Source of the DNA: a virus
Taxonomy: Duplodnaviria > Heunggongvirae > Uroviricota > Caudoviricetes
Direction: 5' to 3' (one strand)
Virus record (IMG/VR): IMGVR_UViG_2526164602_000016
DNA: 7,924 nucleotides
Below the pieces are notes generated by a model. It was not told where the DNA came from and made no database searches. It saw only the letters and a list, made by a program, of their open reading frames with translations. The position numbers were made by a program, and so were the translations under genes. Shown piece after piece: positions 1-535 of this stretch (the first letter of the stretch is position 1; every line of letters starts with the position of its first letter).

Positions 1-535
1 AATATCAGGCATACCCGATTGACGGCAGTGGCTTTGAGATGAACGGAAGGGCAGCAGTGCCAGACCGTCGCTGACGGTGTCGAATCTGTTTGGTCTGGTC
101 ACCGGGATGGCGGAGGACCTGCAGAGCCTGGTGGGGGCCACGGTGGTCCGCCGCCGGGTGTATGCCCGTTTTCTGGATGCGGTGAATTTTGTGGCAGGCA
201 ATCCTGAGGCAGACCCTGAGCAGGAGCTGACGGACCGGTGGGTGGTGGAGCAGATGTCATCGCTGACGGCCATGACGGCCTCGTTTGTGCTGGCCACACC
301 GACGGAGACGGACGGAGCGCTGTTTCCCGGTCGCATTATGCTGGCGAATACCTGTATGTGGACCTACCGCTCTGATGAGTGTGGTTACACGGGCGGGGCA
401 GTGGCGGATGAGTTCGACAACCCCACCACGGATATCCGTAAGGACAGATGCAGCAAGTGCATGCGCGGGTGTGAGATGCGCAGCATGGTGGCTAATTTTG
501 GCGGTTTCCTTTCCATTAATAAACTTTCGCAGTAA
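1..535 (+). CDS. L: Tail tip assembly protein L (gpL-like), 5'-partial, with an apparent 1-nt frame break near nt 45-50
   Basis: The frame-2 ORF (track 77..535, open from nt 38) translates to ...KGSSARPSLTVSNLFGLVTGMAEDLQSLVGATVVRRRVYARFLDAVNF...GGFLSINKLSQ, which matches my memory of lambda gpL residues about 67-232. Frame 2 has stops at 20-22 and 35-37, while frame 3 from nt 3 reads YQAYPIDGSGFEMNG, matching the preceding gpL segment. The GTG at 77 is an ORF-caller artefact, not the true start. Stop TAA at 533-535. Confidence 0.8.

Follow-up and report, generated by a model that had tools for sequence, protein, structure and literature searches.

A single-base frame break in tail gene L of a lambdoid prophage contig from Escherichia coli O157:H7 is most likely a draft error

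The lambdoid tail gene L is deposited in two reading frames at the start of the contig studied here, and sequence comparison suggests that the break between them is most likely an error of the draft, hence ordinary, and not a biological pseudogene. An exact match of its K protein identifies the window, by which we mean the whole stretch of 7,924 nt that was analysed, as the complete contig AKLW01000035.1 (1-7924) of assembly GCA_000267165.1, the draft genome of E. coli O157:H7 TW11039 from 2012. The frame break is a deterministic property of the deposited sequence and no chance pattern. It probably reflects a homopolymer error or a collapsed-repeat consensus error, with no mutation in the bacterium. 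We favour an artefact because the short allele is absent from finished genomes and recurrent in indel-prone drafts, and because L is otherwise undamaged. The features of the window are as follows.

3-47, plus strand: upstream frame of L (frame 3), codons 56-70 of the 232-codon gene, from translation, tblastn and the offset of 55 in the L of strain 17B6-2
45-51, plus strand: the break GGAAGGG (G2 A2 G3), one base shorter than the intact alleles, from alignments and a run-length table
47-535, plus strand: downstream frame of L (frame 2), residues 71-232 with the stop at 533-535, from tblastn and the PF05100 match
72-74, plus strand: TGA terminating the upstream L frame, from translation
546-1289, plus strand: K, tail tip assembly (JAB/MPN + NlpC/P60), intact
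1286-1867, plus strand: I, tail assembly (PF06805), intact
2210-5685, plus strand: J, tail tip/host specificity, split by a second 1-nt gap
5753-6352, plus strand: lom (Ail/Lom outer membrane protein), intact
6417-7730, plus strand: side tail fibre N-terminal domain gene, intact
7732-7924, plus strand: tail fibre C-terminal domain gene (PF06820), cut by the contig end

Gene L reads in frame 3 up to GGA at 45-47 and in frame 2 from AAG at 47-49, with base 47 common to both. The start of the window falls inside the gene, and its first 55 codons lie off the contig. Letters 41-51 of the window are GAACGGAAGGG, and at the break itself the window has AACGGAAGGGC, with one base missing from the G/A run. 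Three-frame translation gives YQAYPIDGSGFEMNG in frame 3, followed by RAAVPDRR and the stop TGA at 72-74, while frame 2 has TGA at 20-22 and 35-37 and then runs as KGSSARPSLTVSNLFGLVTGMAEDL and onwards from AAG at 47-49 to TAA at 533-535. The deposited sequence does not hold L in a single uninterrupted frame: frame 3 gives way to frame 2 at nt 47. A sequence-only reading of the contig had described the switch and all of these stops, and the translation agrees with it at every position. The switch also appears in tblastn searches with intact L proteins, whose match falls into two parts: residues 56-73 align in frame 3, residues 71-232 in frame 2. The downstream frame is 100% identical to the L of O157:H7 17B6-2 over aa 71-232. 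All DNA comparators are one base longer than the window at the break. In GenBank the downstream piece is annotated as a 152-aa fragment at 77-535 (EIO66593.1).

The gene is a homologue of lambda gpL, as the same reading had proposed. With the frame repaired, the 177-aa product scores 260.9 bits against PF05100 (Phage_tail_L), above the Pfam gathering score of 25, and the family also matches the deposited 152-aa fragment. The repaired protein aligns gaplessly with the lambda Tail tip protein L (PDB 8iyk chain L) over residues 56-232, with an E-value of 1.4e-92, and the C-terminal cysteines in NTC, DEC, (R/K)C, SKC and GC are all aligned with those of lambda gpL. The likeness to lambda gpL (PF05100; PDB 8iyk, 8iyl, 8k35, 8xcg, 9e7m) thus comprises the gapless alignment, the N-G-K-G motif and the five C-terminal cysteines. 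The gene row agrees: the tail tip genes follow the order M-L-K-I-J, and the window holds L-K-I-J-lom-stf, an order that it has in common with lambda and that is consistent with a position of L between M and K; in the relatives and in E. coli DEC4A, L is preceded by M. Unlike lambda gpL, which is a single ORF, the L of the window as deposited is split over two frames, with its first 55 codons missing. A natural end or start of the protein at the break was considered and rejected: intact homologues and lambda gpL continue through N-G-K-G.

Two intact alleles of L occur at the site of the break, GGGAAGGG (G3A2G3, read as GGG AAG GGC) and GGAAAGGG (G2A3G3, read as GGA AAG GGC). They are synonymous, and both are found together in single O157:H7 genomes, for example in strains 319 and F8798. 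The run lengths of the window are G2A2G3, and repair by either base yields N-G-K-G, as at aa 69-72 of lambda gpL. With one base restored, the 177 encoded residues match aa 56-232 of the intact L protein WP_171878333.1 with 100% identity. No further decay in the form of substitutions, stops or indels is visible in the protein encoded by the rest of the gene. The closest intact copies come from O157:H7 lambdoid prophages (WP_171878333.1 of 17B6-2 and WP_001151106.1 of strain 319), which differ from the window by 0-1 mismatch over the first ~750 nt, match the repaired protein completely over aa 56-232 and have AACGGGAAGGGC where the window has AACGGAAGGGC. These nearest relatives carry the GGGAAGGG allele. 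Because of this, the missing base would more simply be a G of the first G run (GGG to GG) than an A. The repair proposed from the letters alone, to GGAAAGGG, does correspond to a natural intact allele; the accompanying suggestion of a lost A fares less well, as the nearest relatives indicate a lost G.

The main alternative to an error is a real deletion, in which one lambdoid prophage of TW11039 lost the base when replication slipped in the GGGAAGGG run. Short runs are prone to slippage. Such a deletion would truncate L after residue 70, leaving aa 1-70 followed by RAAVPDRR (78 aa) and removing the conserved cysteine-rich C-terminal part; the prophage would be unable to build its own tail tip and would be one more defective O157 prophage. 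We consider this unlikely, first of all on the evidence of finished genomes. A 60-mer across the break was searched in 5,426 complete E. coli genomes, with matches in 1,510 records that hold 3,459 copies of L and include many O157:H7 genomes as well as DEC4E. The short allele has no exact match among these 1,510 records and 3,459 copies, which speaks against a deletion in the bacterium: the best matches to the 60-mer all span 61 nt for its 60, with one gap. A genuine pseudogene lesion should be repeated in independent high-quality assemblies, and none of the 5,426 complete genomes has it. The short allele is likewise found in 0 of 62 phage records, and neither the GTDB representative genomes nor the JGI metagenome contigs contain an exact match to a 29-mer that carries it.

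Other assemblies do carry the short allele, and hits in several assemblies at one spot of L are what a true slippage site could produce. The assemblies concerned, however, point the other way. The 29-mer matches two IMG/VR contigs, which exact protein matches assign to E. coli DEC4A (O157:H7; contig of 5,059 bp) and STEC_DG131-3 (O174:H8), and the G2A2G3 string is identical in DEC4A, STEC_DG131-3 and the assembly GCA_046646265.1. DG131-3 was assembled at IGS with Celera 6.0 from 454 Titanium reads only (PMC3491183). Its short string sits on the other allele background, of the G2A3G3 type, and two more run-length indels lie within 45 nt of it: CCCGCCCG has become CCCGCCG (C3 to C2), and CAATCT has become CAATTCT (T1 to T2). 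This cluster is a plain pyrosequencing signature. DEC4A is annotated with the same 78-aa L product (EHU91174.1), and its contig has further indels: K is frameshifted by a run shortened from G5 to G4, at about position 1896 of the reverse complement, and J differs from that of PV15-279 by three single-base indels. In GCA_046646265.1 the G2A2G3 string stands amid ~78 gap openings in 6.1 kb. All characterised carriers of the short allele are indel-prone drafts. The presence of one string on two allele backgrounds and in unrelated serotypes, beside obvious run-length errors, argues against a real deletion, as does the complete identity of the remaining L protein to an intact copy. Absence from finished genomes combined with recurrence in error-prone assemblies, whatever the background, is the pattern of an artefact.

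Neighbouring lesions of other kinds occur at the same place. In the NCTC assembly UGCN01000007.1 (6199-6220) a G is lost from the next run instead, giving G3A2G2; the tape-measure gene of that assembly is in four pieces and its K is split. E. coli 576-1, considered as a carrier of the same allele on account of its 78-aa product, was rejected: its DNA reads AACGGCCGGGC at locus positions 836-850, which is likewise one base short but not the same lesion. Because different one-base-short lesions strike the same spot, the GGGAAGGG stretch appears to be a recurrent trouble spot for base calling and less likely one for mutation.

The origin of the draft is in keeping with such errors. The accession AKLW00000000 belongs to TW11039, whose genome is among 26 IGS drafts of a serotype called genetically homogeneous; these were made either from Illumina reads alone (Velvet) or as hybrids of Illumina and 454 FLX/XLR reads (Celera), and TW11039, with 71 contigs, is in the group with 47-71 contigs and outside that with 393-1288 (PMC3593324). 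Because its 71 contigs place it within the first group, we infer that TW11039 is a 454+Illumina Celera hybrid. The sequence-only reading had guessed at homopolymer-error-prone data; the source draft does belong to a project that used 454 reads together with Illumina for some of its strains, probably including TW11039, and the G2A2G3 site lies within G/A runs. Of the two explanations which that reading had offered, a pseudogenising deletion and an error, the error is favoured by this origin and by an allele that no finished genome carries and that recurs in indel-prone drafts.

The position of the break within the assembly is also telling. As the window is a whole contig, only 44 nt separate the break from the contig end, a place where the fewest reads normally support a consensus. 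The tail genes of the window are multi-copy in O157 genomes, with up to 18 matching places per genome, and a small stand-alone contig would here stand for lambdoid tail genes that have many near-identical prophage copies per genome. Its consensus would have come out one base short (G2A2G3) at a junction of G, A and G homopolymers, the likely cause being either an under-called 454 run or the misalignment of paralogous reads that differ exactly here (G3A2G3 against G2A3G3). In the cell, L would be expected to be an intact tail tip protein of 232 aa.

The contig as a whole resembles no single finished prophage, which again disfavours a real deletion in one prophage. Although O157:H7 is called homogeneous, no complete genome exceeds 98.0% identity to the contig over its whole length, and the mismatches are clustered. 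Compared with a panel of 18 loci, it resolves into 31 segments, many of only 15-250 nt, with switch points for example in 2594-2776 and 3800-4420, and the segments 2480-2800 and 3800-4420 reach at best 97.8% and 98.4% identity in any finished genome. Two 1-nt gaps aside, only bases 2646 and 2650 of the window are missing from the panel, and the contig can therefore be described as a recombination of known paralogous alleles. This mosaic suggests that it is probably a collapsed-repeat consensus; natural recombination between prophages is a possible source of the same pattern. Since both intact L alleles occur in one genome, a collapsed contig would mix reads that differ exactly at the break. 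The collapse of the repeat is put forward as probable, and the exact route by which the base was lost as a proposal.

The second 1-nt gap of the contig lies in J, after position 2632 in CAGTTG[C]AGCG, and divides the gene into ORFs at 2210-2653 and 2650-5685. A broken J on the same contig is what a decaying prophage would be expected to show. The gap is found in 0 of 6,160 J copies in complete genomes, all of which have the extra base, with a best identity of 97.8% over 2480-2800; the J-site allele has no match in the IMG/VR scan either. Two substitutions unique to the window, 2646 C>A and 2650 G>A, lie within 19 nt of the gap. The J gap is outside any homopolymer, and for this reason not every oddity of the contig fits a plain 454 run-length error.

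True frameshifts in tail genes are known from finished O157 prophage genomes, again in J, and they favour a real deletion and weigh against a simple artefact. The J of the Sp15/VT1-Sakai type has a frameshift at about position 3316 of the window, where the window itself is intact. It resembles the L break of the window in that one base disrupts the reading frame of a tail gene in a lambdoid O157 prophage. The Sp15-type lesion, however, is repeated in the finished genomes F8798, M1300706002 and VT1-Sakai, where it is described as 'frameshifted' or 'truncated by a mutation', whereas the L lesion of the window is present in none. Were the deletion real after all, it would mean no more than a further defective tail gene in a serotype whose many defective lambdoid prophages are already known.

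A draft error thus remains the preferred explanation, and the L break shares several traits with known artefacts. Like the indel errors of 454 and uncorrected long reads and the errors of collapsed repeats, it involves short runs of G and A and has no counterpart in finished genomes; like known indel artefacts, it turns up again in a 454-only assembly, where other run-length indels are close by, and in an assembly with ~78 gaps per 6 kb; and like collapsed-repeat errors, it is close to the end of a contig whose prophage genes are multi-copy. In two respects it departs from the typical picture: the runs at the L site are only 2-3 bases long, shorter than the usual problem runs, and the companion gap in J is outside any run, unlike 454 run-length errors. 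A plain 454 under-call should, moreover, have been outvoted if Illumina reads entered the consensus. A simple majority vote over two misaligned alleles can be given only as a possibility for the precise cause, because the two read classes would both lose only if they were present near 50:50 or were weighted by quality.

Two further readings take the short allele as real and L as still made. In recoding, ribosomes that have read GGA would slip back by one base (-1) at the rare arginine codon AGG and continue with AAG GGC and onwards. The geometry permits it, as base 47 belongs to both frames and the rare AGG at 48-50 comes next in the upstream frame, and rare AGG codons can provoke frameshifting. 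Yet C GGA AGG is no slippery heptamer of the form X XXY YYZ, lambda L is a single ORF, and the two-frame arrangement is unconserved (0 of 1,510 complete-genome records and 0 of 62 phage records, all of which encode L in one frame); programmed -1 frameshifting is rejected on the missing heptamer and the missing conservation, and is close to refuted, with a negligible probability. Just as improbable is the more elaborate version in which GGAAGGG is real in TW11039 and the other strains, marks a recurrent slippage hot spot in L and yields low-level full-length protein through a -1 shift at AGG, as a leaky and tunable gene of a defective prophage.

The relevance of the L break concerns mainly data quality. 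Small isolated contigs that carry prophage tail genes in older 454/Celera drafts of E. coli O157 can have a chimeric consensus, and frameshifts in them can be spurious. It would be wrong to count the split entries for 'minor tail protein L' that derive from such contigs (e.g. EIO66593.1, EHU91173.1/EHU91174.1 and EGW93144.1) among pseudogenes or to take them for signs of prophage decay.

Two other regions of the contig vary in length between copies. The spacer between I and J (1868-2209) is highly variable, with mismatches as dense as 46-61 per 250 nt. In the window and in copies of the F8798 type it is ~100 nt longer than in the copies of 17B6-2, strain 319 and VT1-Sakai, and the extra sequence is distributed over several blocks of 6, 55, 14 and 25 nt. 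At 7306-7395 the tail fibre gene (6417-7730) differs in length from the F8798 copy by 90 nt, in frame, and at 7362-7452 it contains a collagen-like tandem repeat of two 45-nt units.
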